The notes beneath the pieces are model-generated. The model had not been told where the DNA came from. It was given only the letters and a program-made list of their open reading frames with translations, and searched no databases. Of a stretch of DNA of 51,418 bases, positions 3,219 through 47,539 are shown piece after piece. The stretch comes from a virus (lineage: Duplodnaviria > Caudoviricetes). Made by a program: the position numbers and the translations under genes. The stretch covers positions 1 to 51,418 of IMG/VR virus record IMGVR_UViG_3300011416_000014. One strand, given 5' to 3'. Positions within the stretch are counted from its first letter, which is position 1, and each line of letters begins with the position of its first letter.

Positions 3219-3222
3219 CACG

Positions 3223-5260: not shown

Positions 5261-5308
5261 GAGAAGGCCCGCGCCGGGAGGGAGGCAATCCCCCGGGCGG
5301 GCCTTCTC
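5261..5308. terminator. Hairpin between convergent genes (probable bidirectional terminator)
   Basis: Perfect 12-bp inverted repeat GAGAAGGCCCGC/GCGGGCCTTCTC with inner CCGGG/CCCGG pairing. Confidence 0.65.
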
Positions 5309-5328
5309 TGGCAGCCAAGGGCTGCCGC

Positions 5329-5871: not shown

Positions 5872-5881
5872 GAGGTGCCTC

Positions 5882-24177: not shown

Positions 24178-24340
24178 GGCTCGCTCCCTGCTTGACTGGT
24201 GGCCGACCCTGGGCTACACGAGGACAGCCGCGCCTCCCGGACAGAGGCAACGGACCGCGACAATCTTGCGACAGACGGCATTCCCGCAGGACGGTTTGGC
24301 ATGGTGCCGGAGGACAACTCGACAGGTCGGGAGGATTTGG

Positions 24341-24370
24341 GCTGCCAAATTGGCAGCATGCTGGTATAGT
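24341..24370 (+). promoter_or_regulatory. Putative portal promoter overlapped by a 17-bp palindrome (operator-like)
   Basis: CTGCCA-N17-TATAGT with TG extension; GCTGCCAA-A-TTGGCAGC inverted repeat at 24341-24357. Confidence 0.5.
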
Positions 24371-24441
24371 AGCGCAGGATGACCGGGGTCGTCCAGCGAA
24401 AAACCTGGATTTTTCTTACCACTCAACGAGGAAACCTCCCC

Positions 24442-27088: not shown

Positions 27089-27273
27089 GAGTTGCGCCTC
27101 CGGTTGTCTTTGATCCATTCTTCACAGTTGAACGCAATGACCCTTGCGAGGACTCGTTCCTTGCGGTAGTCGCGGATCTTGTCTGAGATGAACATCAACA
27201 GCATCGACGTGATCGCGATAAAGATCAGCGCTTCGCTGAGATACAGCAGGATGAGATAGTAGGTGGGGATCAT
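27085..27273 (-). CDS. Small membrane protein (MIPTYYLILL...)
   Basis: ATGA overlap, SD GGAG, TM helix. Confidence 0.6.
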   Translation of the reverse strand: MIPTYYLILLYLSEALIFIAITSMLLMFISDKIRDYRKERVLARVIAFNCEEWIKDNRRRNS

Positions 27274-28574: not shown

Positions 28575-29131
28575 GACCTCTCTCGATGGATCCAGCGGGC
28601 CAGGAGGAGCGCATCCGCGACGTGCTTCCACTGCCCTGGTGAGATGTGCTTGAACGCCTCCGGGATGATGCGCGGCCGTGCGTAGGAGTCTTTGCCCTTG
28701 CCGATGATGCTGTAGCCCCAGCCCAGCTCGTTGAATAGCCGGGCCTGCATGGCGTGCTTGGGCACGCTGCCCTTCCACTCCTCCGGCTCGGGCAGGCGCG
28801 CGTCTCTCCATCGCCCGCAGATCATGAGGACACCGTAGGCCGCACCGGCAACCTGCGCCAGCTTGACGATGTCGCCCGGGCGACGGTGCTGCGCCGCCCC
28901 CTCCCGCTTCAAGGACTGGCCTTCGACCGCGAACAGGGTGGCGTCCTCGTGCCAAGAACAGAAGGTGGTCAGGTCGTACGAGCACTGCCGAATCATCCGT
29001 TCGACGCGCTCGCGGCCGGACAGCCCTTTGTCGTGGACAAGGTGGATAACGTACGCAGCCACCGGCCCCGAGTCGTCCCACACGCCGATCGCCAGGTCGT
29101 GAAGGTCTGGGTCCACACCGATGGCCTTCAT
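28571..29131 (-). CDS. RuvC-like Holliday junction resolvase
   Basis: IGVDP, VEGQ, P.EWKG.VPK, ADALLLA. Confidence 0.8.
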   Translation of the reverse strand: MKAIGVDPDLHDLAIGVWDDSGPVAAYVIHLVHDKGLSGRERVERMIRQCSYDLTTFCSWHEDATLFAVEGQSLKREGAAQHRRPGDIVKLAQVAGAAYGVLMICGRWRDARLPEPEEWKGSVPKHAMQARLFNELGWGYSIIGKGKDSYARPRIIPEAFKHISPGQWKHVADALLLARWIHRERS

Positions 29132-29316
29132 CCGCCGCGCTCCTGTTCGGTGATCTCGTGCTCGACGATCTTGCGGTACATGGTGCTGGCCCCGATCCCG
29201 AGCAGGATGGCGGCGGTCTCGGCGTGGCCGCCCGACGACTTCAGCGCGCGAAGGATAACCGCTCTTTCGGCTTCGCGCAAGGAGTCCGGTCCAAGTTCTC
29301 CTAACCGCAGGATCAT
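29128..29316 (-). CDS. Fis-family helix-turn-helix protein
   Basis: SLREAERAVILRAL..SGG....AA.LLGI..STMYRKI. Confidence 0.9.
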   Translation of the reverse strand: MILRLGELGPDSLREAERAVILRALKSSGGHAETAAILLGIGASTMYRKIVEHEITEQERGG

Positions 29317-30443
29317 GGGTAGACTCGCCCATCGCCAGGGAAGATGATCCGTTCGAGGCGAGTGATCGTGCCTTCCTGGATCCAGCCGCTGCCGCCAAAG
29401 CCATCTACGTCTTCGCTCTCGTCGCGCACGAGTCGCTCCGCGACTCGATGTACCCGGATGACCCGATTGCAGTAGCCGTCTTCACGCAGGGCTTGCACAC
29501 GCGCCAGGACGTGACTTCGTGTGCGTACACTCGATGGCAGTTCGCACCAGAGGAAACCGTCGTCGGTTGGCGCGGGCAGTTGGACTTCGATGGTGAAGAG
29601 GAGAGGCTGTCCCTCGATCGCGCCTTCACCTCTTGCGCGAAGCGGATTGGGCACGGCCGCTTTGAACGACAGCGGCTCTCCAGGGATCAATTCGCGACTG
29701 CCCCACTCCGGCGAATCCAGGACTTCATCCTCCTGGTCGTAATCGATCTCGGGCGGCGAGATCCCGACGCATGGCGTGCCCTTCAAATCAAACTTGCACG
29801 GCTGGCTGCCGACGATCCCTCCCTGCTTGTACTCCGGGCCATGCTGCAGAGAGCCTTGTTCCACGGCGTGGTAGGACTGTTCCATGTATTCGATGATCGA
29901 GGCTCGTGCTGCCGCTGTCTGTTTATCAGCCCTTTCGCACTCCCCTGCATGAAATAAGTGACTAACCAGGTCGCGGTTCTCGTCGATCACCTTGGCCTCG
30001 CTAGTAACAGTGTAGGGCTTGCTGAAATCGCTTTCATTGCCCACACCGATGAGCGTGCGAGCGTTCGGGTAACGGTAGCGCGTGTCATCGCCTATCCCCC
30101 GCTCGCGGAATGTGATGAGCATCGCCAGGTTGGTGATCGCGTGATCCAAGTGCGGCAACCCGCTCTCGGTGTCGGTGTCCTCGCCACGATGCCAGGCCAT
30201 CAGGTGCCGCATCAACGAAGCATAGGGCTGCAGCCACGGGAAGCCCTTGGCCCAGTTCCAGTCGTCGTACTTCTGCGAGCCGTGCGTGAACACCCGGCCC
30301 ATAGCCTCCACGGCCTCGGCCGGCACCAGCTCCAGCCGCACTTTGCCGTCGTCGAACCTGGCGGCCTGCGTCGGGTCGCCCAGCTGTTGATTGTACGGAC
30401 TGGTCATCGTTGCCTCCGGAAGTGGTTCGAAGAAGGTTGTCAT
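29313..30443 (-). CDS. DUF5664 (dATP/dGTP diphosphohydrolase-like) domain fused to an unknown C-terminus
   Basis: K.RLELVP..A......V..HG.QKY..WNW.KG, SL.RHL.AW..GED.D.ESGLPHL.HA..NL. Confidence 0.85.
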   Translation of the reverse strand: MTTFFEPLPEATMTSPYNQQLGDPTQAARFDDGKVRLELVPAEAVEAMGRVFTHGSQKYDDWNWAKGFPWLQPYASLMRHLMAWHRGEDTDTESGLPHLDHAITNLAMLITFRERGIGDDTRYRYPNARTLIGVGNESDFSKPYTVTSEAKVIDENRDLVSHLFHAGECERADKQTAAARASIIEYMEQSYHAVEQGSLQHGPEYKQGGIVGSQPCKFDLKGTPCVGISPPEIDYDQEDEVLDSPEWGSRELIPGEPLSFKAAVPNPLRARGEGAIEGQPLLFTIEVQLPAPTDDGFLWCELPSSVRTRSHVLARVQALREDGYCNRVIRVHRVAERLVRDESEDVDGFGGSGWIQEGTITRLERIIFPGDGRVYP

Positions 30444-32704
30444 TTCTGGGCCGGCTTCCACGGGATCAACTTCCCGCTCTCATCGCGCACAGGCTCAGCG
30501 GCTTTCGACCAGACCACCGTCAGCAACGCTTCATCGGTGCGTACTCTTATTGAACTTAGGATCATGCTGGCGCTCTCACGGATCAGCCGCGCAACTTCCT
30601 CACACTGCGGCGCCCACAGTTCGGGATCGGCGGTCGTTTCACCGACGATCTGATCGTGGATGAACCCGATCGGGCGGGCGCCGTACAGCACGCTGCCCAT
30701 CGTGGGATCGTAGCACGCCCGGCTAACCACGATCATCCCGGCCAGCGCGGCCTCCGCGCCCGGCGACTGCATGCTCGCGCCATTTGCCGCAGCGCAGTAG
30801 GACGCGCCGACGCGCACCATGCCGAGCGGGGTGGTGTAGCGGTACATCGTGTGCTCGCCGGTGGTGTTGGCTTGGTCGGTCTGCGCGTTGACCCAGTCGA
30901 AGAAGCGTGGCATCTCTGGGTAGGTGGCCTTCCACATCTCTCTGAAGTCGCGCGCCTGCTCCTCGGTCATGATGACGCCGTAGGTCTGCCGCGCGAACGT
31001 GACCTGCGTTGCCGGCCCCAGCCCGCCAGGGTAGCCCAACCCAACCGGCTTCGCGAACGTGCGGTAGTGCTTGTAGAAGGCGCGCACTTCCTGGCTGTCA
31101 TGCTTCTTCAGAAGCCGGAAGGCTTCGTACACCGCCATCGGCTTGGCCAGGATGCCTTCGGACCTGCAGAGTTGCGCAAACTCGCGCGCCATCCCTTCGT
31201 CGGTGCCGAGAGCCAGCTGCGCGCCGAGGTAAGCGTGCAGGTCGACCCCTGCGTTGTACAGGTCGCGGTGGACCGACGCGCCGAACAGCTTGTAGGTGGT
31301 GTCGCCGACAGCGGCCAGCTCCAGCCCGGTCACGTCCACGTCGAAGAACACGCGGCCGTGGCGGGGCTTGAAGCACCGGCGCGGATCTAGGCCGCGGATC
31401 TCGTTCGGGATCTGCGTGATGTTCACGCTGGCGTATAGGCGCGGCTCGCCGGCCTTGCGCGCCTTGCCGCCGTCGTAGCTGGAGATGCGGCCGGTCTCCT
31501 TCAGCGCGTCGTAGTCGGGGTAGACCACCGGCCCCGCGCGCAGCGCGGGGATCATCTGAGTGACGATCTTCTGCAGGCTCTGGCGCTCGTGATACTGCGC
31601 CATGACCGGATCCTTCGTGGCGAGGTACTCCTGGACCTCGGCGTCGCACTGGATCGACCCGCCCGGCGTCATCGTCGGGATCTCGCCGAGCTTCCGGTAC
31701 AGGTCTTCGAGATAAGCCTGCAGCTTCTTGGTGTCCTTGCTGCCCGGCTCGCCCTTCGCCTTGCGGAACTTGATGCCCTGCGCTTTCAGCATCTCGGCCA
31801 ACGGGGTCCAATCCAGGATCTCAGTTGCGGCTATGGGAAGCTCAGCATCCAGTTCACCGTGCTGTACCAGGTCTTCAAGAATCTCCAGCGCCCGCGGCAG
31901 ATCCTTGGCGAATGGCTCGCCCACCATGCTCGCCGGCCGCAGGATGCCGTGCTCCTCCAGCAGCGACTTGTTCGCCTCGATGACCGCGGTGGTGGCGGCC
32001 TCCATGGCGTCGGTCGCGGCCTGGTCTACCTCCATGCCCCACGCGGTCGCGAGGCGCAGGACGACGGACTTGGTGAGCTGGAACTCCTCGGTGACGAAGG
32101 AGCCCTCCTCGAATGCGGCGCGGGCTTCCTGCGCTTCGTAGACCCGCAGCGTGTGCTCGCCGTCGCCCGCGGCGTAGTCGTGCGCCTCTTCCGGGTACTC
32201 ATCAGACCGCCAACCGTCGAGCGCTGAGAAGTTCAGCCGCCAGGTGTCCGGCTCGCCGCTCTTTTCGGCGCTGATGTCCTCGCCGAGGTACTTGAGCACC
32301 AGCGCTGCCAGTCCGTAACGGATCTCGACGCGCGAACCGTCGGGCATCTCCATCTCGTCGAGCCGGCCGGTGGTGGAGAGATTGAGCAGCTTCTCGCGCC
32401 AGAGGGTGTCAGTGCAGCGGCCGTCGATCAGCGCTGAGAATACCAAAGGGATCAGGTTCGGATACGAACCGCACACCACGGCCCAGTCGAAGCCGCCGTT
32501 GTGTGTGACCCACCGCACGTCCTCCGCCTGCAACAACTCTTCCAGCACTAATTCCAGCCATTCGTCTGGATGGTTGCCGATTACTTCGGTGCGTAGAGCG
32601 CCATCCTCAGTGCGCTCGGTGAAGATGGCACAGACCAGCCGCGGCACGATATTGCCCGGACCGATCAGGTGGGTCTCGGTGTCGAACGCGATCAGGGTGG
32701 TCAT
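30440..32704 (-). CDS. polA: DNA polymerase family A with 3'-5' exonuclease
   Basis: ExoI FDTET, ExoII HNGGFD, ExoIII YAAGD; TGRISS; motif A DVTGLE, motif B RTFAKPVGLGYPGG, motif C IHDQ. Confidence 0.92.
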   Translation of the reverse strand: MTTLIAFDTETHLIGPGNIVPRLVCAIFTERTEDGALRTEVIGNHPDEWLELVLEELLQAEDVRWVTHNGGFDWAVVCGSYPNLIPLVFSALIDGRCTDTLWREKLLNLSTTGRLDEMEMPDGSRVEIRYGLAALVLKYLGEDISAEKSGEPDTWRLNFSALDGWRSDEYPEEAHDYAAGDGEHTLRVYEAQEARAAFEEGSFVTEEFQLTKSVVLRLATAWGMEVDQAATDAMEAATTAVIEANKSLLEEHGILRPASMVGEPFAKDLPRALEILEDLVQHGELDAELPIAATEILDWTPLAEMLKAQGIKFRKAKGEPGSKDTKKLQAYLEDLYRKLGEIPTMTPGGSIQCDAEVQEYLATKDPVMAQYHERQSLQKIVTQMIPALRAGPVVYPDYDALKETGRISSYDGGKARKAGEPRLYASVNITQIPNEIRGLDPRRCFKPRHGRVFFDVDVTGLELAAVGDTTYKLFGASVHRDLYNAGVDLHAYLGAQLALGTDEGMAREFAQLCRSEGILAKPMAVYEAFRLLKKHDSQEVRAFYKHYRTFAKPVGLGYPGGLGPATQVTFARQTYGVIMTEEQARDFREMWKATYPEMPRFFDWVNAQTDQANTTGEHTMYRYTTPLGMVRVGASYCAAANGASMQSPGAEAALAGMIVVSRACYDPTMGSVLYGARPIGFIHDQIVGETTADPELWAPQCEEVARLIRESASMILSSIRVRTDEALLTVVWSKAAEPVRDESGKLIPWKPAQK

Positions 32705-33663
32705 GCGAAGAGATCCTGTGCCAGTGACTTGGTGACTCGGACGACCTCGGCCTGCAGCCGCTTGAAGTTGATGGTGGCGCTCTTGTGCTTCTTCAGGATC
32801 GCCCACATCTCTTCGTTCACTAGGTCGTGCCACACGCGACCAAGCAGTTGGGGGATGAAGCGGTCGCGGTAGGTGGCCTCTATCCCGAGGCAGCTCAACG
32901 TAATGTCAGCGTCTTCCTCGTTGGCGATCTCCACCGCGACCTTTGCGCGGGTCTTCCCTACCAAGTGCGGCGTCACGAACTGCTCGGCGATCTCGGCCTC
33001 GATCGACGCGCTGCCGTTGTTGGCGTGCCCGAACACTTTGCGGTTCTTCTCCTTGAAGTCGTTCGTCACCAACTTCGCCCACGTCGCGTGCGGCGTCCAC
33101 CAATCGTAGTTCTTCAGGACGATGCCCTCGCCGATCCCGGCACCCTCGGCGATCAGGAAGGTGTTACGTTGCACCGCGGCCTGCAGCTGCTCGTCGCTCG
33201 GGCTGTGGTACTCGCCCAGGCACTCTACGTAGTCGACATCATACTCTCGCAACAGCGCGCTGGAGTAGCCGTGGGGCAGGTATCTTAAATCACGCAGGTC
33301 GAACACGTCGAAGATCCAGAAACGGCGCCATGCCTCGGGGCGATAGGTCTTCAATGTGTGCGGTACTAGCCACTCCCCGTACAGGATGAACCAAGGATGC
33401 CGCTGCACCAGTCGAGGAATCCGTGCTGCCTCAATCGAGTCCCCCGCCAACCACTTGGCGAAGCCGGCGTTGTCGCTCTCTGGAGAGAGGACTCGACTGC
33501 GGGACGCGCAGCACACCTTCTCGCCGTCGAACCAGACACTGCCGTTGGTGCCGTCCAGCTTCGGGAAGACATGGACGCGGCCGGTCGTCAGGCCGTCCAC
33601 GTTGCGATGGTCGAGTCTTTCGAGATGTTCGTACTGCCGGAATCGTGCGACGGGGTGGCTCAT
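32701..33663 (-). CDS. RNA ligase (Rnl2-like nucleotidyltransferase)
   Basis: PKLDGTN, LYGEW, FWIFDV, GEGIVLK, WAKLV. Confidence 0.8.
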   Translation of the reverse strand: MSHPVARFRQYEHLERLDHRNVDGLTTGRVHVFPKLDGTNGSVWFDGEKVCCASRSRVLSPESDNAGFAKWLAGDSIEAARIPRLVQRHPWFILYGEWLVPHTLKTYRPEAWRRFWIFDVFDLRDLRYLPHGYSSALLREYDVDYVECLGEYHSPSDEQLQAAVQRNTFLIAEGAGIGEGIVLKNYDWWTPHATWAKLVTNDFKEKNRKVFGHANNGSASIEAEIAEQFVTPHLVGKTRAKVAVEIANEEDADITLSCLGIEATYRDRFIPQLLGRVWHDLVNEEMWAILKKHKSATINFKRLQAEVVRVTKSLAQDLFA

Positions 33664-37821: not shown

Positions 37822-39719
37822 CAGCCGACCCTCGTGATGACGGCCTCTACGCCTTCCTTCAGGCCCATGAGCGCCTGCAGGAGCGAACCCACGTCGTCGT
37901 TGCCCAGGATACCCGGGTGGACGACGACGTGCCGCGCCAACTCGCCCGCGATGTAGTCGGCCTTCTGGGCCAGGCGCTCGCGGCGCTTGAAGGTGTCGAG
38001 CTGCCAGTAGGACTCGGCGCCCATGTCGGCGGCCAGCTCGGCGCCAAACCGCGCCAGGACTTCGGCCGAGGTGATGGTGGGCCGGCTGGGGCCGCGCAAC
38101 TGCACCGCGCCGATCAGGAGGGTGACGCCCACAGTCGGGCGCCCGCCCTTGTTGCCAGCTGCCGCCTTGGCGGCGGGGGCCTTGGGGGCCTCCTGCACGG
38201 GCTCCGGGGCCTGCTTCACCAGGGTCTCGACGACGGCCTGCCGCTCGGGCGACATGACGACCGGCGCGGTGAAGGGCTCCTGGACCGTTGCCACGACCGG
38301 GGGCGCCACTGGGGCCGGAGCGGCGGGCTGCGCCGGGGAGTCGGCCTCGATCCACTCCAGAGGCAGCCCGGCCTTCTGCAGGGCCTCTGCCTGCTCCTCG
38401 CGAGCGACGGCCACGCCCTTGCCCGCGTCGTCCAGCTCGATGATGTAGGCCATGCTGGTGGGCTTCCCAGCCTTCTTGGCGGTGGCATCGCAGATCGGGC
38501 AAGCCCTCCCGCTGCTGCTCAGGCCGCGCCCCTTGCACGCGCGACAGTTGAGGTTCGCCCACGGGGCGCCGCCGATCGCCGAGGGCGGGGCTGCGGGTGG
38601 GATGCCACCATTGATCGCCGGTGCCGGCGCTGCGGGCGGGGCCTGTTCCACGGCCGCCACGGCGCCGGCCGTGCCTGCGGCTTCCTGGCGCGCGGCTTGC
38701 TGTGCCTGTTGCTGCTTGGCTCGATCGAAGATGCTCACGCTGCTTGCCTCCTTGGCTGTGCCCCGCTTCCGGGGAGTTGGTAGGGGTAGGTCGAGTCTCG
38801 ACCCTGTTCGTTGTTCCAGCAGACGCGCGACTCGCGTCTGATATACCTCAGGACTCTCAGTGCGTCCACAGATTTGCGCAAACGGGCAGGCTTGACCGTA
38901 CCAGTGCGCGCACTTGCCGGTGTCGGTTGGGCCGGGAACATCCGACCACTCCTTGACCTTGGACGTGCGTTCGATGCGGTCGGCGACTTCGTGCAGGTAC
39001 TCGCCGTGTGCTGCGATCTCGTCGGGGGACAGGACGGCTTCGACCTTGGTAACTCCGGGACCTTCGAACTTGGGGTACTGGTTGTGGCGCAGCCGCACGC
39101 TGTCATTCCAGCCGTCGAGCTGTGACGTGACCCATGCGTAAGTGCGCAGCTGTTGGTTCTTGCCGAGGTAGTTCGGCGAGTCGGGGTCCTCGCGCTTGAG
39201 GTAGCGCACGCTACCCTTGCCGTAGCTCTTGTGATCGCCGATCTCGGGCAGCTCACGTTCTGTGCCTGCACGAAACAGGTCGATGTAGCCGACCAGTTGC
39301 ACATTCTCGGTGATCGCAATGCGAATCGAGCGCTCCAGTTGCATCGACGGAGTGCGGTAGATGATCCCGTTCTCGATCGCCTCGGCCACGAGGGCCTGGA
39401 TCTGTCGCGCCTCGGTCGGCGTGACCTCGGCCGTGCTGCCGTCCATCTCAGTGGCGACCATCCAGCCCTTCGGGTACAGGTTGACCGGCTGCCCACCTAG
39501 CTGACCCTGGAACAGACCCTCGGCGATGGTCGCACCGTCCGGCCCAGGCACTCGCCCGTTGTCCGTCGCGCTCAGCCAGCGCTCGATGACGGAGTGCAGC
39601 ACCGTACCGAACGTGAAGTGCGCTGCCGGCGGCTCTTTCAGTTTCAGGACGCGGCGCAGCCACCAGTGCCTTGCACAATCCTCATAGGTGTCGATCTGCG
39701 ATGCAGAGATCGTAATCAC
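37821..39719 (-). CDS. PD-(D/E)XK (Cas4-like) exonuclease with Zn-finger/Ala-Pro C-terminal half
   Basis: SASQIDTY..C...WW, GT.LH, GYIDL, GDHKS, QL.TY, C......CPF..IC; second cluster CRAC...CPIC. Confidence 0.85.
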   Translation of the reverse strand: MITISASQIDTYEDCARHWWLRRVLKLKEPPAAHFTFGTVLHSVIERWLSATDNGRVPGPDGATIAEGLFQGQLGGQPVNLYPKGWMVATEMDGSTAEVTPTEARQIQALVAEAIENGIIYRTPSMQLERSIRIAITENVQLVGYIDLFRAGTERELPEIGDHKSYGKGSVRYLKREDPDSPNYLGKNQQLRTYAWVTSQLDGWNDSVRLRHNQYPKFEGPGVTKVEAVLSPDEIAAHGEYLHEVADRIERTSKVKEWSDVPGPTDTGKCAHWYGQACPFAQICGRTESPEVYQTRVARLLEQRTGSRLDLPLPTPRKRGTAKEASSVSIFDRAKQQQAQQAARQEAAGTAGAVAAVEQAPPAAPAPAINGGIPPAAPPSAIGGAPWANLNCRACKGRGLSSSGRACPICDATAKKAGKPTSMAYIIELDDAGKGVAVAREEQAEALQKAGLPLEWIEADSPAQPAAPAPVAPPVVATVQEPFTAPVVMSPERQAVVETLVKQAPEPVQEAPKAPAAKAAAGNKGGRPTVGVTLLIGAVQLRGPSRPTITSAEVLARFGAELAADMGAESYWQLDTFKRRERLAQKADYIAGELARHVVVHPGILGNDDVGSLLQALMGLKEGVEAVITRVG

Positions 39720-41773
39720 GCGGTGCCCTTTCCTGACAAGACGACGGCGATCATGTCGTCGCCGCCTGGCTGCGCGGCGAGCATCCGCTCAGTGCGAGCC
39801 ATGGTCATGCCGTACCTCATCCCCTCTTCGAACAGGATGCCCAGGTCGATCTCCACCCAGCGGGCGCGCTGCTCGCGCTGACTGCCGGGCGGGCTAGTGA
39901 CCTCGGCGCGGCCTGCGTCGTCGTGCTTGCTGAACTGCCGCAGCACGCGGCCCGCGATCGGCAGCGAAATCTCCCCGTATGCCGAAGTCAGGCCCGATTC
40001 GGCTATTTCGACCACGCCGGCAGGCGTGACCCACACGCGGTTCTCGTGGACGTGCAACCCACGGCGCGACGTGCTGCCACTGGCCTCGATCATCTTCACC
40101 AGTGAGCGTAGCACGGTCTGTGCGCCCTTGGACCGCAGCCTCATCTCGCGGACGATCTGCGTGCTTGTCTCGCCCTCCACCAGCAGCCGGCCGGCGCCGA
40201 TCAGCGACGGCTTGCGGTTCTCGAACAAGTAGAAGATGTGATTGGCCAACGTGTACTCGCTACCCTTGTGCCCGGCGACCCAGCCCGCCGTGTACTTGTA
40301 GTTGCCGCGCCGGGTCAGCAGCGACTGCGCTGCTTCGAGGACTTCGATCGACAAAAGCCGCTGCTCGATGGCCTGGATGTCGTCGGCCGTCAGGTCGCGG
40401 TGGCCAACGATGCTGCGCACGATGTCGCGGTCGTTCGACGTGAACAAGATGCGCGGGTAGATGTCGGCGTTGAAGGGGTCGCGGTGCATGGCGCGGATGG
40501 TGATCCGGCCGCCGGTCACGAGCGAGCGGAAGGCTTGGTCTACGGTCATCGCCTCATCGTTGTTGATCTGCGGCACGCCCTCATCGCAGTTCACCACGGG
40601 GGAGTCGAGCAAGCCGACGTTGAACTTCCCAAGCGCGCGGCCGTCGTTGCGGTGCCCGCCCTCGAAGCACTCGGCCAGGCCGGCGGCCAGCATGCCCTTG
40701 CCGGTGCCCGGCGGACCGAAGAGGTTGAGCGCGCAGATCGCGCGGCGCACGTCCAGGCTGTGCGCCAGCCACTCGGTCAGCCGGTCGTACTGCTGGCCGG
40801 CGAGCGCCTGCAACCACTCGTCCACGCGCAGGTCGAAGATAGGCACCAGCTTGGGGTTCAGCCTGTGGACGGGGACGTGCAGCACCTTGTGCCCTCCAGC
40901 GCCGTCGATGTAGGCGACCGACTCGCGCGCCGAGCACTCGATGGTGGTGATCGGCACAGCATGCTCGTTGAGCAGCGCGGTCGCGGTGCGCGTCACGACT
41001 TGCTTGCCGCGGATCTCGGTGGTGGGGATGACCTCCTCCATCCCCAGGTCGCGAATCATGGGAATCAGCATGGAGTCTGAGATCGGGCGGATGTTGTACG
41101 AACCGTCTGGCCTCATGACGTGGTGCCTGCGCCCGTCGCTGGCGATCATCCGCGCCAGGAACCAGACCTGCGCGGCGTCCGCGTCGGCGGGCACGTCCTG
41201 CGGCCTGGCCTCGCGAACCTGAGCGATCAACTGCTGACGCAGTTGCTCTCCGCTCTGCACCTTTTGCCGGCGGTCGTTGTGCTCGGCAAGGATCTGCGAT
41301 TCCTCGGTGGCCCAGAGCCTGCATATCAAGTCCCAAGTCGTCGCGAACCAGTCGGTCTCGTTGGCGCCGCGCGTCTCGCGGTCGTGCAGCTGTTCGATGG
41401 CGGAGTGCAGCAGCGCGTAGATCCCCTCTGGGGTCACGTCTTCCTGCCGCGCGAGCATGCCGATGGTCTGGCCGACGATGCGCGTGACCTGGTTGTTCCA
41501 GTTCGCCTCGCCCTCGGCGATCGGCGCGTGCTCGAAGCACACCGCGTAGGCCGGGCGGCCCGACAGGTAGGTCTTCGCCAGCTTCACCAACGGGCTGTCG
41601 TAGATGCGCCCGTTGCCCCCCTCGTAGGTCAGCATGCCCCGGATCTCGTCCGGGTCTGGCGCGTCTCCCTGGTGAGTCTCGACTGGCGCAAACGAGCCCG
41701 CGGCCTGCGCCTCTGCGCGTGGCGCAGTGGCAACGTCCAGGATCGGCCCGCCGGTGACGAGAATCGGGTTCAT
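39716..41773 (-). CDS. Primase-associated helicase (SF3/P-loop NTPase)
   Basis: Start MNPIL at 41773 via ATGA overlap; GPPGTGKG, VNCDE, LFTSN. Confidence 0.8.
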   Translation of the reverse strand: MNPILVTGGPILDVATAPRAEAQAAGSFAPVETHQGDAPDPDEIRGMLTYEGGNGRIYDSPLVKLAKTYLSGRPAYAVCFEHAPIAEGEANWNNQVTRIVGQTIGMLARQEDVTPEGIYALLHSAIEQLHDRETRGANETDWFATTWDLICRLWATEESQILAEHNDRRQKVQSGEQLRQQLIAQVREARPQDVPADADAAQVWFLARMIASDGRRHHVMRPDGSYNIRPISDSMLIPMIRDLGMEEVIPTTEIRGKQVVTRTATALLNEHAVPITTIECSARESVAYIDGAGGHKVLHVPVHRLNPKLVPIFDLRVDEWLQALAGQQYDRLTEWLAHSLDVRRAICALNLFGPPGTGKGMLAAGLAECFEGGHRNDGRALGKFNVGLLDSPVVNCDEGVPQINNDEAMTVDQAFRSLVTGGRITIRAMHRDPFNADIYPRILFTSNDRDIVRSIVGHRDLTADDIQAIEQRLLSIEVLEAAQSLLTRRGNYKYTAGWVAGHKGSEYTLANHIFYLFENRKPSLIGAGRLLVEGETSTQIVREMRLRSKGAQTVLRSLVKMIEASGSTSRRGLHVHENRVWVTPAGVVEIAESGLTSAYGEISLPIAGRVLRQFSKHDDAGRAEVTSPPGSQREQRARWVEIDLGILFEEGMRYGMTMARTERMLAAQPGGDDMIAVVLSGKGTA

Positions 41774-42351
41774 GCTCTCACGGTGCAGGGGAGGCGGAAG
41801 AGGCGGGTCCAGTCGGAGCACTGCTCATCGAACTGCACCCCAAGGGCGGCGAAGCGTTGAATCATGCCGATCGTGAGGGCCTCGGCCTCGGTCGGCCCGA
41901 CCTCCTCACTGAGCACGTAGATGAGCCGCGAGCCGTGCAGGGTGGAGTAGAAGGCAGTGGGCTCCGGCAAGCCTGGTTGAGCCAACGCAACAAGGTGCTG
42001 CTCGAACCGCTCCGGAGTCCAGCGCGCTTTCTTTCCATCGACGTGCAGGTCGAAGTCGAACACCAGCAGAGGAATCCGCACGCGCCCGCCAGCCTCTTCG
42101 AGTTGCTGCAGGAACGGACTTCGCTTCGACACGCGGGCGAAGGCGAACTCGTCGCCGGAAGGGTCGGCGTCCAGGCGGTACAACAGGAAGTGCGCGTCCT
42201 GGTCCCACGCACGAGTCAGGGCCTCGCTCAGTGGCAGGTGTTCGTCGCACAGCACGAGCGCCGCGCGCTCCGGGTCCTGCAGGTCAGTCAGCGACTTGGC
42301 CGCTGGGTGACGATCCCTGGCGTAGATGATACCGATGGTCGGGTCGTTCAT
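41770..42351 (-). CDS. AEP-type primase/prim-pol catalytic domain
   Basis: FDFD, STLHGSRLIY, D.QCSDWTRLFRLP; SD GGAGG before MNDPT. Confidence 0.75.
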   Translation of the reverse strand: MNDPTIGIIYARDRHPAAKSLTDLQDPERAALVLCDEHLPLSEALTRAWDQDAHFLLYRLDADPSGDEFAFARVSKRSPFLQQLEEAGGRVRIPLLVFDFDLHVDGKKARWTPERFEQHLVALAQPGLPEPTAFYSTLHGSRLIYVLSEEVGPTEAEALTIGMIQRFAALGVQFDEQCSDWTRLFRLPCTVRA

Positions 42352-42385: not shown

Positions 42386-42961
42386 TCAACTGCCGAATTG
42401 AAGATCCTGCAGCCGGGTGCGGAACAAGCCCTCTGCAGCTCGCCACTCATAACCGATCGGCTGAATGGCGTTCGGCACCAAGATGTCCAGGTTGCGATCG
42501 TACCAGCTGGGGATGATGCTACGCAGCGTGCGGACTTCTCGGTGCAGGATGATGGTGTCGTACCGCTTGATTCGTCCCCAGACCGGGTCTTTGTTGGGCG
42601 GCAGGCGCAGCGCGTGCCGCACGACCAGCTCCATGGAATCCTCGAACCTATCCCAACCCTCGATCATCCGCTTCTGGGGGCTGGCCACGTCGCCTATGTA
42701 GGCTTCGTGCGCGTCGTGCAGCAAGCCAGGCAACATGGCTTCCTCATCTCCAACGTGCTCGGCGATGAGGCTGACCCACACGGAGTGCTCGGCGACCGAG
42801 TAGAACTTGTCCAGGTGCCCGCGGTAGCGACAGCACATCGCCAGCGAGCGCCTGATGTCCTCCATGCGGATGTCCTTAGGCTCGACGGTCTCTGGCGGGC
42901 CGATGTTCACGCCGGTAAGGGTCGTGATGTAGGGGTGTTTGCGTGCCGGATGTTCGATCAT
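42386..42961 (-). CDS. HD-domain 5'-deoxynucleotidase (YfbR-like)
   Basis: RY.GH...FYSVAEHS, LLHDAHEAYIGD..SP.K. Confidence 0.9.
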   Translation of the reverse strand: MIEHPARKHPYITTLTGVNIGPPETVEPKDIRMEDIRRSLAMCCRYRGHLDKFYSVAEHSVWVSLIAEHVGDEEAMLPGLLHDAHEAYIGDVASPQKRMIEGWDRFEDSMELVVRHALRLPPNKDPVWGRIKRYDTIILHREVRTLRSIIPSWYDRNLDILVPNAIQPIGYEWRAAEGLFRTRLQDLQFGS

Positions 42962-42971
42962 GGCGTCCCTT

Positions 42972-43355
42972 TCAGCAGTCCGAGTACCAGGCCGACCACT
43001 GGCCTTTGATCTTGCGGCGAGCCCAGAACACGAGTCCGGTGTTCCAGTCAACTGGCAGGCCCGTCCTGGCCTGGAAACATTCAGCCAACATGTTGCGGTG
43101 TTGGACCGTGCGTCCGCGGGGATCGACTTCCCAAATCCCCTGGATGGCCTGTCCCGCAAGCAGCCACTCTTTCCAGCCGGGACCTATTACGTGCAGATAC
43201 TCGCCTTCTTTTTCCACGTAGAGAGTTTGCGAGCGGTGCGCTGGGATCTCGAAAAAGCCATCCACATAGATGATCTTGAACGGTTTGGTCTTCATCCTTG
43301 CCTCCTGAAGTGTCTTTCGGATCTCGGCGAAGCCCATCAGCTTGCGCCGGCCCAT
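42972..43355 (-). CDS. Hypothetical protein (start may be at internal MKTKP)
   Basis: Packed ORF in the operon; AGGAGG precedes MKTKPF. Confidence 0.55.
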   Translation of the reverse strand: MGRRKLMGFAEIRKTLQEARMKTKPFKIIYVDGFFEIPAHRSQTLYVEKEGEYLHVIGPGWKEWLLAGQAIQGIWEVDPRGRTVQHRNMLAECFQARTGLPVDWNTGLVFWARRKIKGQWSAWYSDC

Positions 43356-43356
43356 G

Positions 43357-43665
43357 TCACTGCCCCAACTGTTCGGGCAGACTAAGCGTCTTCATCAAGA
43401 GTCCCAAGACCAAGTCCATCGTGCGACTTCCTGTACCCTCCAGGCTGTACCAGACCTCGGCGGGTTTCGGGGGCACATGGATCAGTCGGTGCTCTTTCAC
43501 GAAGAAGACCTGTTCGTGTCGCCAGCTTGCCTCACCCATCTCGTCCCGGTTGAAATGTTCGAGGGTCAGCCGGATTCTGCCTTCGTTTTCCCTCCTGGCG
43601 ATCAACCGACTCTGCGAACTCTGGCACAGAATCGTGCGTTGGTTGACAGCGGTAGGCCAGTTCAT
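43357..43665 (-). CDS. Hypothetical protein (MNWPTAV...)
   Basis: ATGA overlap. Confidence 0.55.
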   Translation of the reverse strand: MNWPTAVNQRTILCQSSQSRLIARRENEGRIRLTLEHFNRDEMGEASWRHEQVFFVKEHRLIHVPPKPAEVWYSLEGTGSRTMDLVLGLLMKTLSLPEQLGQ

Positions 43666-43910
43666 GCGATCCACCCGCGCTCCCGCGCCAGCGCCCGCTG
43701 CACCGGCGTCAGCTCTGCGATGCGCTTCGCCCGGTAGCGAGGGTTCAGCCGCTTGCGGAAGAAGTTCTTCCCGAGCCGACGCTTCAGCTGCCACTCGTCC
43801 ACGTCGAGCTGCATGTCCCGCGCGGTCGGGGCCGGGATGTTCTCCTCGTTGAAGCGCGGCAGCAGCGCGCCCAGCACCGACTTGAAAGCTGACTTCAGTG
43901 TGTTGAACAT
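43662..43910 (-). CDS. Hypothetical basic protein (MFNTLKS...)
   Basis: TGATG overlap. Confidence 0.6.
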   Translation of the reverse strand: MFNTLKSAFKSVLGALLPRFNEENIPAPTARDMQLDVDEWQLKRRLGKNFFRKRLNPRYRAKRIAELTPVQRALARERGWIA

Positions 43911-44200
43911 CAGTTCCCCTTCCAAACGTAAGGGTAGCCGTGGTCGCGCTCGAACGCGCGTCCCCGGACCGAGTCCGACCACTCGCGCACTTGCTCGCTG
44001 GTGGCCTCGATGTCGACCAACCGCTGCCAGCCGACAGGGTCCTCCGCCTTCGGGTCGATCGTCAGCCAGTGGAGCCGATCGAAGTCCACCGGCTTGTACT
44101 CGTTGCTGGTGGGGAACTCGTGCTTGGCCATGGTAAATACAAGCACCGGCCCGCTGGTCCCGATGACCAGTACGAAAAGGACGCCGAGTAGCGTCTTCAT
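43910..44200 (-). CDS. Membrane-anchored/secreted protein (MKTLLGVLFV...)
   Basis: SD AGGAG, ATGA overlap, N-terminal hydrophobic helix. Confidence 0.6.
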   Translation of the reverse strand: MKTLLGVLFVLVIGTSGPVLVFTMAKHEFPTSNEYKPVDFDRLHWLTIDPKAEDPVGWQRLVDIEATSEQVREWSDSVRGRAFERDHGYPYVWKGN

Positions 44201-44304
44201 CGGTTTCTCCTGCGCAGTAGGGTGGCCAGGCCCAGCGCCAGACCCAAGAGCGGCAGAGTCATCATGGCGATGCCTCCCCAGAACACGATTTCGTAGGTAC
44301 TCAT
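44197..44304 (-). CDS. 35-aa single-TM peptide
   Basis: MSTYEIVFWGGIAMMTLPLLGLALGLATLLRRRNR; ATGA-coupled to the GGDEF gene; SD GGAGG. Confidence 0.55.
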   Translation of the reverse strand: MSTYEIVFWGGIAMMTLPLLGLALGLATLLRRRNR

Positions 44305-44786
44305 TCCAAGCCTCCGGTTTTGTGCAAGTACATGGCAGCATCGGCGGCGGCCGGGTCCTTGCCCAGTCCCGCCGCAGCTGTGACTTCCCCGTGTTGGCTG
44401 CGCCACGCACGGATGACATCGCGAATGCGCAGCGCGCCTACGCGCGTCTCGCACCAGACCAGGAACTCGTCCCCGCCGGTGCGCGCGATGAGCACGTCTC
44501 GGGCGCGCTCTGAGTGTTGCCGAGTGTGCCGCAGCACGAACTCGGTGAACTCCTGCAGGACCAAGTCCCCGAACGCATGCTTGTCCGGGTGCGCGTCCTG
44601 CGCGGCCTTGAAGCCGTTGAGGTCCACCGCCACGAACCACCCCCAGTCCCGGGCGCGCGTCCTGCGCTCCAGTCCTCGACGGTTCAAGAGTCCCGTGAGA
44701 GAGTCCGTGTCGGCTTGCATCATCAGATCATCGGCCCGCTCTTCCGCGGCCCTCAGCTCTTCTATTACGGCTTCGTAGTCAGCCAT
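44301..44786 (-). CDS. Stand-alone GGDEF-domain protein (diguanylate cyclase-like)
   Basis: Coiled coil, then TDSLTGLLNRR, VDLNGFK..D...H..GD.VL, ARTGGDEF, VTAAAG, ADAAMY..K. Confidence 0.9.
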   Translation of the reverse strand: MADYEAVIEELRAAEERADDLMMQADTDSLTGLLNRRGLERRTRARDWGWFVAVDLNGFKAAQDAHPDKHAFGDLVLQEFTEFVLRHTRQHSERARDVLIARTGGDEFLVWCETRVGALRIRDVIRAWRSQHGEVTAAAGLGKDPAAADAAMYLHKTGGLE

Positions 44787-45082
44787 CACAGTTCCTCGGG
44801 TAGATCGATGCCCTCGAACGGGTTGTCCGCGGAGTATTCCAGGATGTTGGCCCGCAAGCGCAGCGCTCGAATCGCTATCCGCGTGGCTTGCTCCTTGAGC
44901 TTGAGTAACTCTTTGATAGAGTCCGGCGGGTTGGTCCCGTGAATCTCCCGGAACTTCGCCACTTCCCGGACGACTTCCACGAACCGCCCTTGCGCTTCGA
45001 CGAACGCGGCATTAGCGCCGTCGTAAGCCACTTGCAACGCAGCGAGATCCGCGTCCGCGTCCGCGTCCTCGTCCTCAGTCAT
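44786..45082 (-). CDS. Hypothetical coiled-coil protein, 98 aa
   Basis: Packed ORF; acidic DA-repeat N-terminus. Confidence 0.6.
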   Translation of the reverse strand: MTEDEDADADADLAALQVAYDGANAAFVEAQGRFVEVVREVAKFREIHGTNPPDSIKELLKLKEQATRIAIRALRLRANILEYSADNPFEGIDLPEEL

Positions 45083-45269
45083 CGTTCGGGTCCTCGTCCG
45101 CGTCCTGCTGGGCAGTCACCGCCGGCTCCCGGTCCCAAAGCATGAGAACGTGCCAGCGCTCGATGCCGAACTCCTCCGCTACAGCGCGCGGGGGCTTGAT
45201 ACCCTCCAGGCTGAGGATCTCTGCTTCCTCGGCCGGTGACAGCACCCGCTGGATTCGATCCCAGTCCAT
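45075..45269 (-). CDS. Small HTH-like protein
   Basis: LS..E..EI......P.RAVAEEFGIERWHV..LW. Confidence 0.6.
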   Translation of the reverse strand: MDWDRIQRVLSPAEEAEILSLEGIKPPRAVAEEFGIERWHVLMLWDREPAVTAQQDADEDPNDD

Positions 45270-45422
45270 TCAGTACCCCAGCCACCGGCGCACGGCCGCC
45301 CAAGTCGGCAGGAGAAGCGTCCAAGAGTCCTCGTCCGTGGTCCGGACGGCGAGTCCCTCCCCGTGCGGCTGGGCTTGGCACCCGTGCAGTCGAACGTGTC
45401 GTGCGAGTCGATCGGTCTTCAT
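45270..45422 (-). CDS. 50-aa protein ending VRRWLGY, probably leaderless (not in the ORF track)
   Basis: Manual translation MKTDRLARHVRLHGC...TWAAVRRWLGY; ATG lies 6 nt downstream of the -10 box; stop abuts the next ATG. Confidence 0.65.
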   Translation of the reverse strand: MKTDRLARHVRLHGCQAQPHGEGLAVRTTDEDSWTLLLPTWAAVRRWLGY

Positions 45423-45428
45423 GTCCGC

Positions 45429-45456
45429 ACCTTACTCCCGATTTTGAGAAACGCAA
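45429..45456 (-). promoter_or_regulatory. Promoter of the HTH/GGDEF operon
   Basis: TTGCGT-N16-TAAGGT, spacer ending GGGAG. Confidence 0.55.
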
Positions 45457-45489
45457 GGATTGTAGGTGTGCCATCTTGTCGTACCCACG

Positions 45490-46119
45490 TCAGTCTGCCG
45501 TATAGGGCTGACCGTCGGGGAGGCACGGCGCCGGCCGCCAGTGAGTCACGCCGTCGAATCGATATCCATCTTCGTGGTCCACCCGCCAATAGAGTGGACT
45601 TTCCGGATCCGGATAAGCCGTCAAGGACGCAAAGACTTGCACGTACCCGCCAGTTACGATGACCGGGTCCGAGGTAAACCACTGCCGCCCGCGTTTCATC
45701 AACGGCAAAGCGTCCTCGACGGCAGTCCATGCGTCCGTGGGCCGAGTCCAGGCGAGCAGTCGTTCGACCGTGTCCGGGAAGACTTCCAGCTCCTTGGCCA
45801 AGTCCTCCAATCCGTCGTCCAGCAAGCCGGCGAAGTACGGGCCGGCGCGGAACGCTTCCTCCGACTCGCACGATACCCGGCCGAGCCAAACATCGCCCGT
45901 TAGGGCTAGGGGGAAACTGGGGCATTCGGCGCGCAAATGCACCCGGCACCAACCCCAGTCCGTGCGTGCGGCAAGCTCTGCAACCTCAAGCTCGGCCGCA
46001 CGTTCCTCCTCCGGGTCGTTCGATGCTAGCACGTTCCCGGCGATCTGAGAAGGCTCGGGATGAGGAACCAGTGTGATGGTCGCATGCGACCGCAGGAACT
46101 CCAGGAGACGGGGATTCAT
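45490..46119 (-). CDS. Hypothetical protein with C-terminal DUF551-like domain
   Basis: C-terminal W.AVEDALP ... VTHWRP.P pattern; ATGA overlap. Confidence 0.65.
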   Translation of the reverse strand: MNPRLLEFLRSHATITLVPHPEPSQIAGNVLASNDPEEERAAELEVAELAARTDWGWCRVHLRAECPSFPLALTGDVWLGRVSCESEEAFRAGPYFAGLLDDGLEDLAKELEVFPDTVERLLAWTRPTDAWTAVEDALPLMKRGRQWFTSDPVIVTGGYVQVFASLTAYPDPESPLYWRVDHEDGYRFDGVTHWRPAPCLPDGQPYTAD

Positions 46120-46325
46120 GGTGCGCGCTCCAATCTCTTCATCCGATCTATCAGCATCGGCGCTTGGCGCCGCACCGTTCGATCTGAAACATCCGCCGAG
46201 AACGCCCCCGTTGGAAGTTCCTCCCGCGACTCCTGGCGTTCTCCGGCAGTAGCAGTGCGGAGTCGTTCGGCAGTATCGTAGGTCAGTAAATCGCCGAATG
46301 CGTCCACGTAGCAAGTCAGTTTCAT
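46116..46325 (-). CDS. Hypothetical protein, 69 aa
   Basis: ATGA overlaps at both ends; SD GAGG. Confidence 0.6.
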   Translation of the reverse strand: MKLTCYVDAFGDLLTYDTAERLRTATAGERQESREELPTGAFSADVSDRTVRRQAPMLIDRMKRLERAP

Positions 46326-46564
46326 GGCGAGTCCTCGGTTAGAGTCACGGCACCCGCGCTGCCGCGCTTGGCCAGCGGGTCCTCAGTGTCGAGTGCCAGG
46401 ATGCCGGCCTTCAGGCACCGGCCGACGATGTCATATCCGTAGCGGAGCGAGCCGTTCGGGCCGACTCGCTCGGCAAGGTACTTGCAACACGGCACCGCGC
46501 CGCCGGCACGCCGAACGATACGAACCGCTTCGCCCATCTTCGGGCCGATCCGTCGGCGTCTCAT
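46322..46564 (-). CDS. Hypothetical protein, 80 aa (possible winged-HTH)
   Basis: ATGA overlaps; LAERVGP...YGY.IV.RC.KAG.L. Confidence 0.6.
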   Translation of the reverse strand: MRRRRIGPKMGEAVRIVRRAGGAVPCCKYLAERVGPNGSLRYGYDIVGRCLKAGILALDTEDPLAKRGSAGAVTLTEDSP

Positions 46565-47013
46565 GCGTCCGTCCCCGAAGTCGTCTCATCGTAGAAGGTC
46601 CGCGCGGAAGGGTAAGCACTCCAGTCCGGTTGATCGCCGCCCGAGCGCAACCAACGGCGCAGAGCGAATGCGTACTCCGTTGCGGTTTCGGTGTTTCCCT
46701 CGGCCAGTGCTTCGGCCATTGCTGCGAGATTGGCGTTTGGATCCATGGTGCGTCCTTTCGTTCTGTCGGGAAAGAAGTCGAGACTATTGCCCCCGCGATT
46801 GTAAGTGTAGATTGCGTTCCGCACTTCGGGTTTGCAGTAGGGGTTCCCGGTCCGATCGCCGGTTGTTGCCCAGTGCAGAAGGATATAGAGCGCTCTGCGC
46901 AGCTCGGCAACCTCCTGCGCCTTCAAGCTGGCGTCCTTCTGAGAAGGCTCGGGATGGGGGACGAGTTTGATGGTCGCACGAGTGCGGAGGAACTCCAGCA
47001 GTCGCGTATTCAT
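46561..47013 (-). CDS. Chimeric 150-aa ORF (three gene fragments fused); internal start at 46746 retained
   Basis: 25 aa homologous to the 46119 gene N-terminus, then a copy of 47348..47539, then AGA in place of TGA, then a copy of 47147..47332. Confidence 0.7.
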   Translation of the reverse strand: MNTRLLEFLRTRATIKLVPHPEPSQKDASLKAQEVAELRRALYILLHWATTGDRTGNPYCKPEVRNAIYTYNRGGNSLDFFPDRTKGRTMDPNANLAAMAEALAEGNTETATEYAFALRRWLRSGGDQPDWSAYPSARTFYDETTSGTDA

Positions 47014-47150
47014 TGGTTCCCCTTGACAAATGACTCGGCCGATTCGCGCGTTCGGAACGTCGCCAGAACTTCCCAGTCCTCGCCCTCTTCCAAGACAACG
47101 TAGAAGAGAGTTCCACTCTCTCCATGCCATGTCACGATTCTGGCGTTCAT
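47010..47150 (-). CDS. 46-aa hypothetical protein (MNARIVTWHG..., not in the ORF track)
   Basis: Manual translation; ATGA overlaps at both ends. Confidence 0.6.
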   Translation of the reverse strand: MNARIVTWHGESGTLFYVVLEEGEDWEVLATFRTRESAESFVKGNQ

Positions 47151-47332
47151 GCGTCCGCTCCTGAAGTAGTTTCATCGTAGAAGGTCCGCGCGGAAGGGTA
47201 AGCAGTCCAGTCCGGTTGATCGCCCCCGCGCCGCAACCAACGGCGCAAGGCCAGTGCGTACTCGGTTGCGGTTTCGGTGTCTTCCTCAGCCAGCGCTTGC
47301 GCGATTGCTGCGAGATTTGCGTTTGGATCCAT
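47147..47332 (-). CDS. Hypothetical protein MDPNANL... (copy 1)
   Basis: SD GAAAGGA; protein sequence conserved in the second copy. Confidence 0.75.
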   Translation of the reverse strand: MDPNANLAAIAQALAEEDTETATEYALALRRWLRRGGDQPDWTAYPSARTFYDETTSGADA

Positions 47333-47347
47333 GATGCGTCCTTTCGT

Positions 47348-47539
47348 TCAGTCGGGAAAGAAGCTGAGGCTATCGCCCCCGCGGTTGTAGGTGCGGATTG
47401 CGTTCCGCACTTCGGGTTTGCAGTACGGGTTCCCTGTCCTGTCGCCTGTCGTTGCCCATTGCAGAAGGATATAGAGCGCTCGGCGGATCTCTGCAATCTC
47501 CTGCGCCTTGAGTCTTGCGTCCATTTCGTACAGGTTCAT
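47348..47539 (-). CDS. Hypothetical protein MNLYEMD... (GNPYCKP motif)
   Basis: ATGA overlap; protein sequence conserved in the duplicate. Confidence 0.7.
   Translation of the reverse strand: MNLYEMDARLKAQEIAEIRRALYILLQWATTGDRTGNPYCKPEVRNAIRTYNRGGDSLSFFPD

Follow-up and report, generated by a model that had tools for sequence, protein, structure and literature searches.

The described enzymes closest in structure to the protein considered here are the coiled-coil GGDEF cyclases, among them DgcB of Caulobacter (6ttr), WspR, GCN4-WspR (3i5c) and SiaD (7e6g), and the solved structure that it matches best by sequence profile is PleD (1w25/2v0n; E 4e-16). The protein is a minimal GGDEF cyclase encoded on the minus strand at 44301–44789 of IMGVR_UViG_3300011416_000014, an IMG/VR virus record whose entire 51,418 bp were analysed and are called the window below. 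It shares with the coiled-coil cyclases a helix-then-GGDEF architecture (Foldseek E 4e-10 to 9e-10) and the same catalytic residues, and a symmetric helix dimer is predicted for it. Unlike them, it has no receiver or input domain, is truncated by about 25 residues beyond the GGDEF hairpin, has a glutamine and a two-residue insertion in its base pocket, and carries its RxxD motif one residue further from GGDEF; identity is 23–31%.

Phages are known to degrade bacterial signalling nucleotides or tie them up, and to influence host cyclases by means of small peptides. Small GGDEF proteins are also on record from cultured phages (Bacillus phage SP-15, 183 aa; Bordetella phage CN1, 152 aa; Gp350 of Bacillus phage G); some are similar in size to the window cyclase, to which they are 22–28% identical. 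Phage GGDEF proteins are therefore already known, and the new variant is a phage-restricted, minimal clade with a glutamine pocket. A literature search, outside which subscription journals lay, found no functional study of a phage-encoded GGDEF cyclase; one metagenomic study mentions viral ‘mucR’ cyclases (PMC11295528). According to Hallberg 2019 (PMC6456294), GGDEF enzymes recognise the base through two residues, one on its Watson-Crick face (Asp in the canonical type, Ser in Hypr enzymes) and an Asn on the sugar face; the Asp drives specificity for GTP, and a ‘Goldilocks’ rule holds that which nucleoside triphosphate (NTP) fits depends on how long the pocket is in relation to the metal site, GGDEF or GGEEF. 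The Hypr enzyme GacA, which makes cyclic GMP-AMP (cGAMP), likewise has a non-canonical base pocket and illustrates, in the same paper (PMC6456294), that pocket changes can re-target the product. Hypr enzymes replace the Watson-Crick-face Asp by Ser and keep the Asn, whereas the window clade keeps the Asp and changes the Asn. In the Panoptes system (PMC12657218), OptS (mCpol) is likewise a minimal, input-less, constitutively active palm-domain cyclase encoded beside a membrane protein gene, but it is almost without a GGDEF motif, makes 2',3'-c-di-AMP and serves bacterial defence, whereas the window cyclase is a true GGDEF protein encoded by a phage.

The cyclase gene is real. Its open reading frame (ORF) specifies 162 residues from a GTG and 161 from the ATG at 44786, the form held in the database, and has a coding-type GC pattern of 0.72/0.46/0.80 at the three codon positions. 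The Pfam GGDEF family PF00990 matches at E 4.2e-9 (36.8 bits against a cut-off of 23.8), and TIGR00254 is passed narrowly (38.8 bits against 37.4). A preliminary description of this DNA, made by reading the sequence, had proposed a 161-residue sensor-less GGDEF protein with a set of catalytic motifs, all of which are present in a genuine phage genome, that of a tailed phage (siphophage) of 63% GC and 92% CheckV completeness. Direct reading gives DSLTGLLNRR at residues 29–38, DLNGFK at 56–61, QDAHPDKHAFGD at 64–75, RARD at 95–98, GGDEF at 105–109 and ADAAMY at 149–154. The AlphaFold model, for which 38 relatives were aligned, has a mean predicted local distance difference test (pLDDT) of 92.4 and consists of a single N-terminal helix (residues 2–26) followed by a compact GGDEF fold. 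Foldseek found 107 matches in the PDB at E ≤ 0.001; all those listed are GGDEF proteins, led by DgcB 6ttr (E 4e-10), WspR 3bre, SiaD 7e6g and GCN4-WspR 3i5c.

Residues D56, K61, D75, R103 and GGDEF of the window cyclase align with the catalytic residues of PleD, which we take to be D327, K332, D344, R366 and GGEEF, with N335 aligned to window Q64. Among 38 aligned clade members D56, which binds metal, F60, K61 and G106-D107-E108-F109 are invariant (38/38), and D75, R103 and K157 are conserved at 90% or more. D75 is the Watson-Crick-face Asp, kept where Hypr enzymes have Ser or Thr; K157 is the Lys of the last helix, found in 95 of 106 proteins with the glutamine pocket (Q-type, as opposed to the N-type with Asn). 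The metal motif is GGDEF, HGDEF or SGDEF in 104/104 Q-type proteins, and GGEEF occurs in none of these 104 against 44 of 267 N-type proteins, counts that are not phylogenetically independent.

The glutamine itself had been noticed in the preliminary description as a QD in place of the usual ND, followed by a short insertion, and it turns out to define the clade. In the profile alignment Q64 falls on the Asn of PleD’s ND, with two extra residues after the following Asp. All 63 clade members (61 by pattern match, the remaining two by alignment) have Gln and four residues before a conserved His, as against Asn and two. Readable motifs of non-clade relatives (n = 165) have Asn and two residues in 163 cases and Asn at another spacing in 2; one exception carries the Gln signature, and in 12 further non-clade relatives the pocket motif was unreadable. 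The signature recurs in 42 of 146 newly listed top profile hits, all of them 109–228 aa long, while every long multi-domain protein among the top profile hits has Asn; seven proteins have a Gln-plus-three variant. Retention of the Watson-Crick-face Asp favours GTP as substrate. Judged by these residues, the cyclase most likely still uses GTP in a re-modelled pocket, with real room for a different product; the Gln substitution makes the product less certain, while fold and family membership stay as firm as before.

The inhibitory RxxD site looks shifted, not lost. RxxD stands six residues before GGDEF in the window cyclase and five in PleD, as the preliminary description had observed, and in the alignment with PleD’s I-site the window residues are R90 and D98, with an insertion between them. 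The same description had suggested that the enzyme might resist feedback, a suggestion left without support because the shifted motif is retained as often (spacing six, 70/104 Q-type proteins) as the canonical one (spacing five, 181/267 N-type relatives). The site may therefore have kept its function.

When 5.8 billion proteins were searched with word seeds, 156 hits reached E ≤ 0.001. Among these the clade forms at least 63 protein clusters of 140–210 aa (E 5e-101 to 7e-18), set off by a gap from ordinary GGDEF proteins, which begin at 8e-11. An exhaustive profile search of 1.84 billion representatives gave 59 at E ≤ 1e-30, and a search among longer proteins none closer than 1.7e-11. The longest contig with any of the 63 clade clusters measures 70 kb and many measure 50–58 kb, while non-clade hits lie on contigs of up to 1.6 Mb. 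Following a check proposed in the preliminary description, we searched IMG/VR for viral GGDEF clades and their neighbours: 29 loci encode a relative of the cyclase, of which 17 (L004–L020, E ≤ 5e-19) are clade members, with GC of 60–71% throughout, and the gene order is conserved among a first group of them, described below. The cyclase is carried by complete genomes with direct terminal repeats (55.9, 55.7 and 44.1 kb) and by further complete genomes of 69.6, 70.0 and 156 kb. By tblastn, 50,697 phage records contained no clade member (best E 1e-5; none covering at least 80% of the query). The clade is almost purely phage-borne, minimal and marked by the glutamine pocket.

Pairwise ratios of nonsynonymous to synonymous substitution (dN/dS) are 0.23, 0.18 and 0.12 for the three unsaturated pairs; the remaining pairs have dS above 1 and, being saturated, are indicative only. 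Overall the ratio lies at 0.1–0.3, and the clade is under purifying selection. A primase scan with a single sequence recovered one locus only, and an alignment-based scan nine relatives, seven of which are contigs carrying the cyclase gene; one distant primase relative has no cyclase gene. Clade, synteny and dN/dS together exclude a lone, decaying capture under relaxed selection, the outcome that the preliminary description had named as fatal to its proposal. The same description had called such genes rare in phage core genomes. Rare they are: at E ≤ 0.001 the cyclase has nine BFVD matches, among them proteins of Bordetella phage CN1 and of Bacillus phages G and SP-15, and four PHROGs of unknown function match it (5594, 14602, 9661 and 11823); ‘core’ was too strong, as a complete relative is without the gene, which is present in at least four unrelated phage backbones.

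A signature-peptide scan of one genome from each of 185,579 species found a single cellular Q-type gene, in a metagenome-assembled genome (MAG) of Actinomycetota. In this gene (L033, 7092–8228, plus strand) a Q-type GGDEF domain and a coiled coil are fused to an AurF-like di-iron oxygenase domain (E 3e-36), and beside it lie genes for an acyl-AMP ligase and a β-ketoacyl synthase III (KAS III); because of these fatty-acid genes we regard the copy as cellular. Its Q-type domain is 87% identical to a stand-alone 176-aa protein on a 41-kb contig. GGDEF matches at E ≤ 1e-15 occur in 190 of 401 sampled Actinomycetota genomes, a tally that takes in eight genomes flagged as unpublished (G002, G019, G049, G121, G175, G227, G240 and G392), which nothing else uses; among the best twelve Actinomycetota loci Gln occurs in the MAG copy alone. 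A quick maximum-likelihood tree of 103 domains (midpoint-rooted, with support from the SH-aLRT, an approximate likelihood-ratio test, only) was built from every third protein of P0001–P0063, all short proteins of P0242–P0300, 18 chosen cellular or long hits and the 12 Actinomycetota loci, other fetched proteins being omitted. In it, 74 small proteins form a group apart (support 99) from the 29 that are cellular or long, and the MAG copy is nested within the small clade, beside the stand-alone 176-aa protein (support 99, then 96). A few small Asn-type proteins lie near the base of the small clade, and since two of these, P0249 and P0263, retain Asn at the canonical spacing, the clade appears to descend from ordinary cyclases. 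The pattern fits an origin from ordinary cyclases, a pocket change that would have occurred within phages and a later transfer from phage to cell.

The cyclase is predicted to work as a homodimer. Its dimer model scored 0.45 against 0.22 for the best of three controls. Among proteins of known structure, 20 of 30 pairs and 1 of 23 single chains attain that mark, although these calibration counts are only roughly valid since the prediction used its own alignment. Contact agreement between runs was at least 92% and partner pLDDT at least 86. The modelled interface follows the N-terminal helix with heptad-like spacing (residues 13, 16–17, 20–21, 23–24 and 27–29) and also takes in residues 95–101.

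We read the protein as a sensor-less diguanylate cyclase made early in infection to raise cyclic di-GMP (c-di-GMP) in the host, and put the probability of this reading at roughly 0.55; its product, host, benefit and early timing are what we infer. The N-terminal helix of about 25 residues would pair two copies into a parallel stalk that holds the GGDEF domains permanently together. As the protein has no input domain, its activity would depend on how strongly it is expressed and on how much product binds to the shifted RxxD. Lacking a sensor domain and carrying its own dimerising helix, the enzyme should work as soon as it is synthesised, with feedback from its product as the brake. Early expression is probable because the coupled string of small genes lies upstream of, and in the same orientation as, the genes of replication and nucleotide metabolism. 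Host GTP would be turned into c-di-GMP, forcing host receptors into their ‘high’ state; as the window genome contains no EAL or PilZ gene, the targets of the signal would be host proteins. Depending on the host, the outcome could be sessile behaviour, surface remodelling and reduced motility, or confinement to vegetative growth through BldD where the host is a developmental actinomycete; the phage would benefit by keeping the cell productive or by blocking superinfection. Phages that tune c-di-GMP have a precedent in the YIP peptides, which activate the host cyclase YfiN, according to one report (PMC8085984). For Streptomyces, another (PMC10117723) describes development governed by c-di-GMP and BldD as limiting plaque spread, and a mutant locked in vegetative growth as giving large, non-shrinking plaques.

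Several points weigh against this reading. The base pocket is not canonical, since the sugar-face Asn, present in 165 of 165 readable non-clade relatives, is here Gln with a two-residue insertion. The PF00990 match covers profile positions 1–112 of 161, the C-terminal half being shortened. The window cyclase ends in KTGGLE, with no basic residue where PleD has R446, which together with K442 we take to form the phosphate-binding residues of PleD’s last helix; other clade members have K or R near the position of this Arg. The dimer result may reflect likeness, because similar complexes have already been solved. A complete close relative of 58,220 bp, its primase 52% identical, has no cyclase anywhere in its genome, so the gene is dispensable. 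The probable early timing is read from gene position: a consensus scan of 43300–46700 found no sigma-70-like promoter (0 found, 0.5 expected), and the promoter placed upstream by the preliminary description is not confirmed. Finally, high GC and a single Actinomycetota relative are no more than hints of the phage host.

The genes around the cyclase all lie on the minus strand. From the 98-aa gene through the 82-aa gene successive stop and start codons overlap (ATGA, GTGA or TGATG). The head of the string is a 50-aa ORF (45270–45422) for which no relative was found. It is followed by a 64-aa protein (45075–45269) with a three-helix core resembling a helix-turn-helix (HTH). The preliminary description had placed an HTH gene here, and the model makes this plausible (three short helices, pLDDT 78, with a weak Foldseek list of mostly HTH domains), but there is no Pfam match and no Foldseek match at E ≤ 0.001. 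The protein corresponds to the C-terminal part of a protein of about 145 aa in related phages; in L004–L009 this counterpart lies 300–900 bp upstream of the cyclase and begins ‘GYEVS.TGRVR’, the half that is missing in the window, a segment that we take to recall NUMOD4/AP2-like DNA-binding modules. Next comes a 98-aa acidic helical protein (44786–45082), whose stop codon overlaps the cyclase start and which is conserved upstream of the cyclase in related phages; its C-terminal PFxG..P..PEEL-like tail is kept across loci of the window group, and it matches no Pfam, PHROG or PADLOC family.

Downstream, as the preliminary description had stated, the cyclase is coupled by overlapping stop and start codons to a short transmembrane (TM) peptide and a second membrane protein. 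The 35-aa hydrophobic peptide (44197–44304) has ATGA overlaps on both sides, a GGAGG upstream, a 19-residue Kyte-Doolittle maximum of 2.12 and a GC content at third codon positions (GC3) of 0.77, as compared with 0.56 and 0.50 when the other two frames are read; it has no counterpart at any related locus and is unique to the window phage. The 96-aa protein (43910–44200) has an N-terminal membrane anchor (hydropathy 2.41) and homologues directly 3' of the cyclase in L004–L007; in L013 and L018 an unrelated small lipoprotein-like protein takes its position. The 82-aa basic protein (43662–43910) is the most widely conserved neighbour, found at 10 loci, and drew nothing from the ESM Atlas. An HD-type nucleotide phosphohydrolase (42386–43159; phrog_318), syntenic downstream in the first group of loci, is mentioned for context only. 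PADLOC, in a 2023 library that predates Panoptes, matched neither the cyclase nor eight neighbours.

The window, L004–L009, L013/L014 and L018 make up this first group (group A), in which the order is HTH-like protein, 98-aa protein, cyclase, small membrane or lipoprotein-like protein, 82-aa protein, HD phosphohydrolase, 226-aa protein, primase, exonuclease and helicase. In phages of about 70 kb (group B) the upstream genes are instead those of a metallophosphoesterase and a ClpP-like protease, and the downstream ones encode a MazG/PRA-PH pyrophosphohydrolase and a single-stranded DNA-binding protein (SSB); the block from metallophosphoesterase to pyrophosphohydrolase is seen at 5273–8800 (plus strand) of L010 and also in L011, L012 and L015–L017; pyrophosphohydrolases of this type are often proposed to remove alarmone or NTPs. 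A 156-kb phage has the cyclase 3' of an LPD29-domain protein and a DUF4942-methyltransferase, and another phage has it 3' of an SPFH protein. The gene moves from one backbone to another, and the neighbours it acquires there are early, host-takeover or nucleotide genes.

Elsewhere the window encodes a large terminase (3139–4680), a tape-measure protein (13855–17751), a major capsid protein (21203–22261), a DNA polymerase (30440–32833), a primase (39716–41821), a helicase and an exonuclease. Close cultured phages were not found: megablast of the window genome gave no match, capsid identity to phages of many phyla peaks at 28.5%, the polymerase has weak partial matches at most among cultured phages, and the primase has none. 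No capsid relative was found among the 401 sampled Actinomycetota genomes, an empty result that shows little, no WhiB gene in the window genome or five related genomes (six examined), and no endolysin was recognised. The single tRNA of the genome is a tRNA-Ala with anticodon CGC (4845–4924, minus strand). A portal-like ORF at 24379–25965 lies on the plus strand (phrog_12, E 5e-11) among minus-strand structural genes, and has a better GC3 signal than the minus-strand ORF that overlaps it at 24214–25518. A direct repeat of 300 nt (87% identity; 46561–46860 and 47147–47446) and a 76-nt repeat (83% identity; 46044–46119 and 46938–47013) cover two paralogous genes of the minus strand at their 5' ends and upstream of these; the products share the N-terminus MN[PT]RLLEFLR..LVPHPEPSQ.

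The window also encodes a 382-aa protein (29313–30461, minus strand) with an N-terminal, MazZ-like dATP/dGTP diphosphohydrolase domain (PF18909, E 7e-29), and a large metallophosphoesterase at 27270–29081. The MazZ type is known from phages whose genomes contain diaminopurine (Z-genomes); a Z-genome was considered and set aside, since the MazZ-like domain is present but the window genome has no homologue of PurZ or adenylosuccinate synthetase. The MazZ-like protein, the HD phosphohydrolase and the metallophosphoesterase are hints of unusual nucleotide-pool editing.

Other explanations of the cyclase have been weighed. The re-sized pocket might yield a different purine dinucleotide, whether mixed, deoxy, modified or of some other kind, serving as a decoy, an antagonist or a private signal against host cyclic-nucleotide immunity; the Gln pocket and GGDEF-only chemistry would then mark a phage-evolved enzyme whose product is not plain c-di-GMP, or which accepts a modified or deoxy purine, and which could jam, mimic or pre-empt host signalling or immunity. 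We consider this unlikely, though worth keeping in mind. Q64 and its insertion, in 63/63 clade members and 0/165 non-clade relatives with a readable motif, and the strict GGDEF-type motif, never GGEEF, in 104 Q-type proteins both speak for it, as does the presence of a MazZ-like domain and an HD hydrolase in the same phage. So do the pocket-length rule in Hallberg 2019 (PMC6456294) and, in the Panoptes work (PMC12657218), the shift in product ratio on changing an Asn/Ser base-contact residue. Yet the Asp that specifies GTP is retained, Gln for Asn is a conservative change, basal P0249 and P0263 with their canonical Asn point to descent from ordinary cyclases, and nothing in the vicinity is evidently a receptor for a new nucleotide or a nuclease acting on one.

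By analogy with the layout of CBASS or Panoptes, the cyclase and the small membrane proteins that follow it might instead form one signalling unit concerned with superinfection exclusion or lysis timing. This seems improbable. The cyclase, the 35-aa TM peptide and the anchored 96-aa protein are ATGA-coupled, and a small membrane or lipoprotein-like ORF stands directly 3' of the cyclase at 7 of the 10 group A loci; but the partners are non-homologous across loci, are missing in L008 and L009 and give way to a MazG-like gene in group B, no related locus shares the 35-aa peptide, a nucleotide-binding domain is not recognisable in the membrane proteins and the 2023 PADLOC library yielded no matches. 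Nor does the cyclase resemble a defence enzyme nearly devoid of GGDEF, its motif being complete. A domain that has given up catalysis, acting as a c-di-GMP sponge through RxxD or as a scaffold for a host protein, is a distinctly poor prospect. GdpS is reportedly a non-enzymatic GGDEF protein and would be a precedent, about two thirds of members keep an RxxD-like site and the domain is shortened at its C-terminus; the invariance of D56, K61 and G-D-E-F (38/38) and the intact motif in 104/104 would be unexpected in a pure binder. That the gene is a recent host capture, a bin contaminant or a decaying remnant is scarcely credible, and the one observation in its favour, the Actinomycetota MAG gene with the same pocket fused to an AurF-like domain, concerns a copy nested inside the small-protein clade beside the stand-alone 176-aa protein. 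This explanation is already contradicted by the presence of the gene in complete phage genomes with terminal repeats, by synteny (7/9 primase relatives carry it) and by dN/dS well below 1.

On the reading that we prefer, a sensor-less cyclase raising host c-di-GMP, a compact (about 160 aa), selected clade that is widespread in high-GC phages offers a handle on why a virus would raise this nucleotide. The clade is also a natural experiment in the design of the sugar-face GGDEF pocket, complementary to the Hypr change, and a small, probably constitutive cyclase could serve as a tool. Should its product prove to be something other than c-di-GMP, phage-host signalling would gain a further, new nucleotide. 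On a bolder and less likely reading, which supposes developmental actinomycetes as hosts, the phage would use c-di-GMP to lock BldD on, and so disarm sporulation and the antibiotic-based containment of infection.

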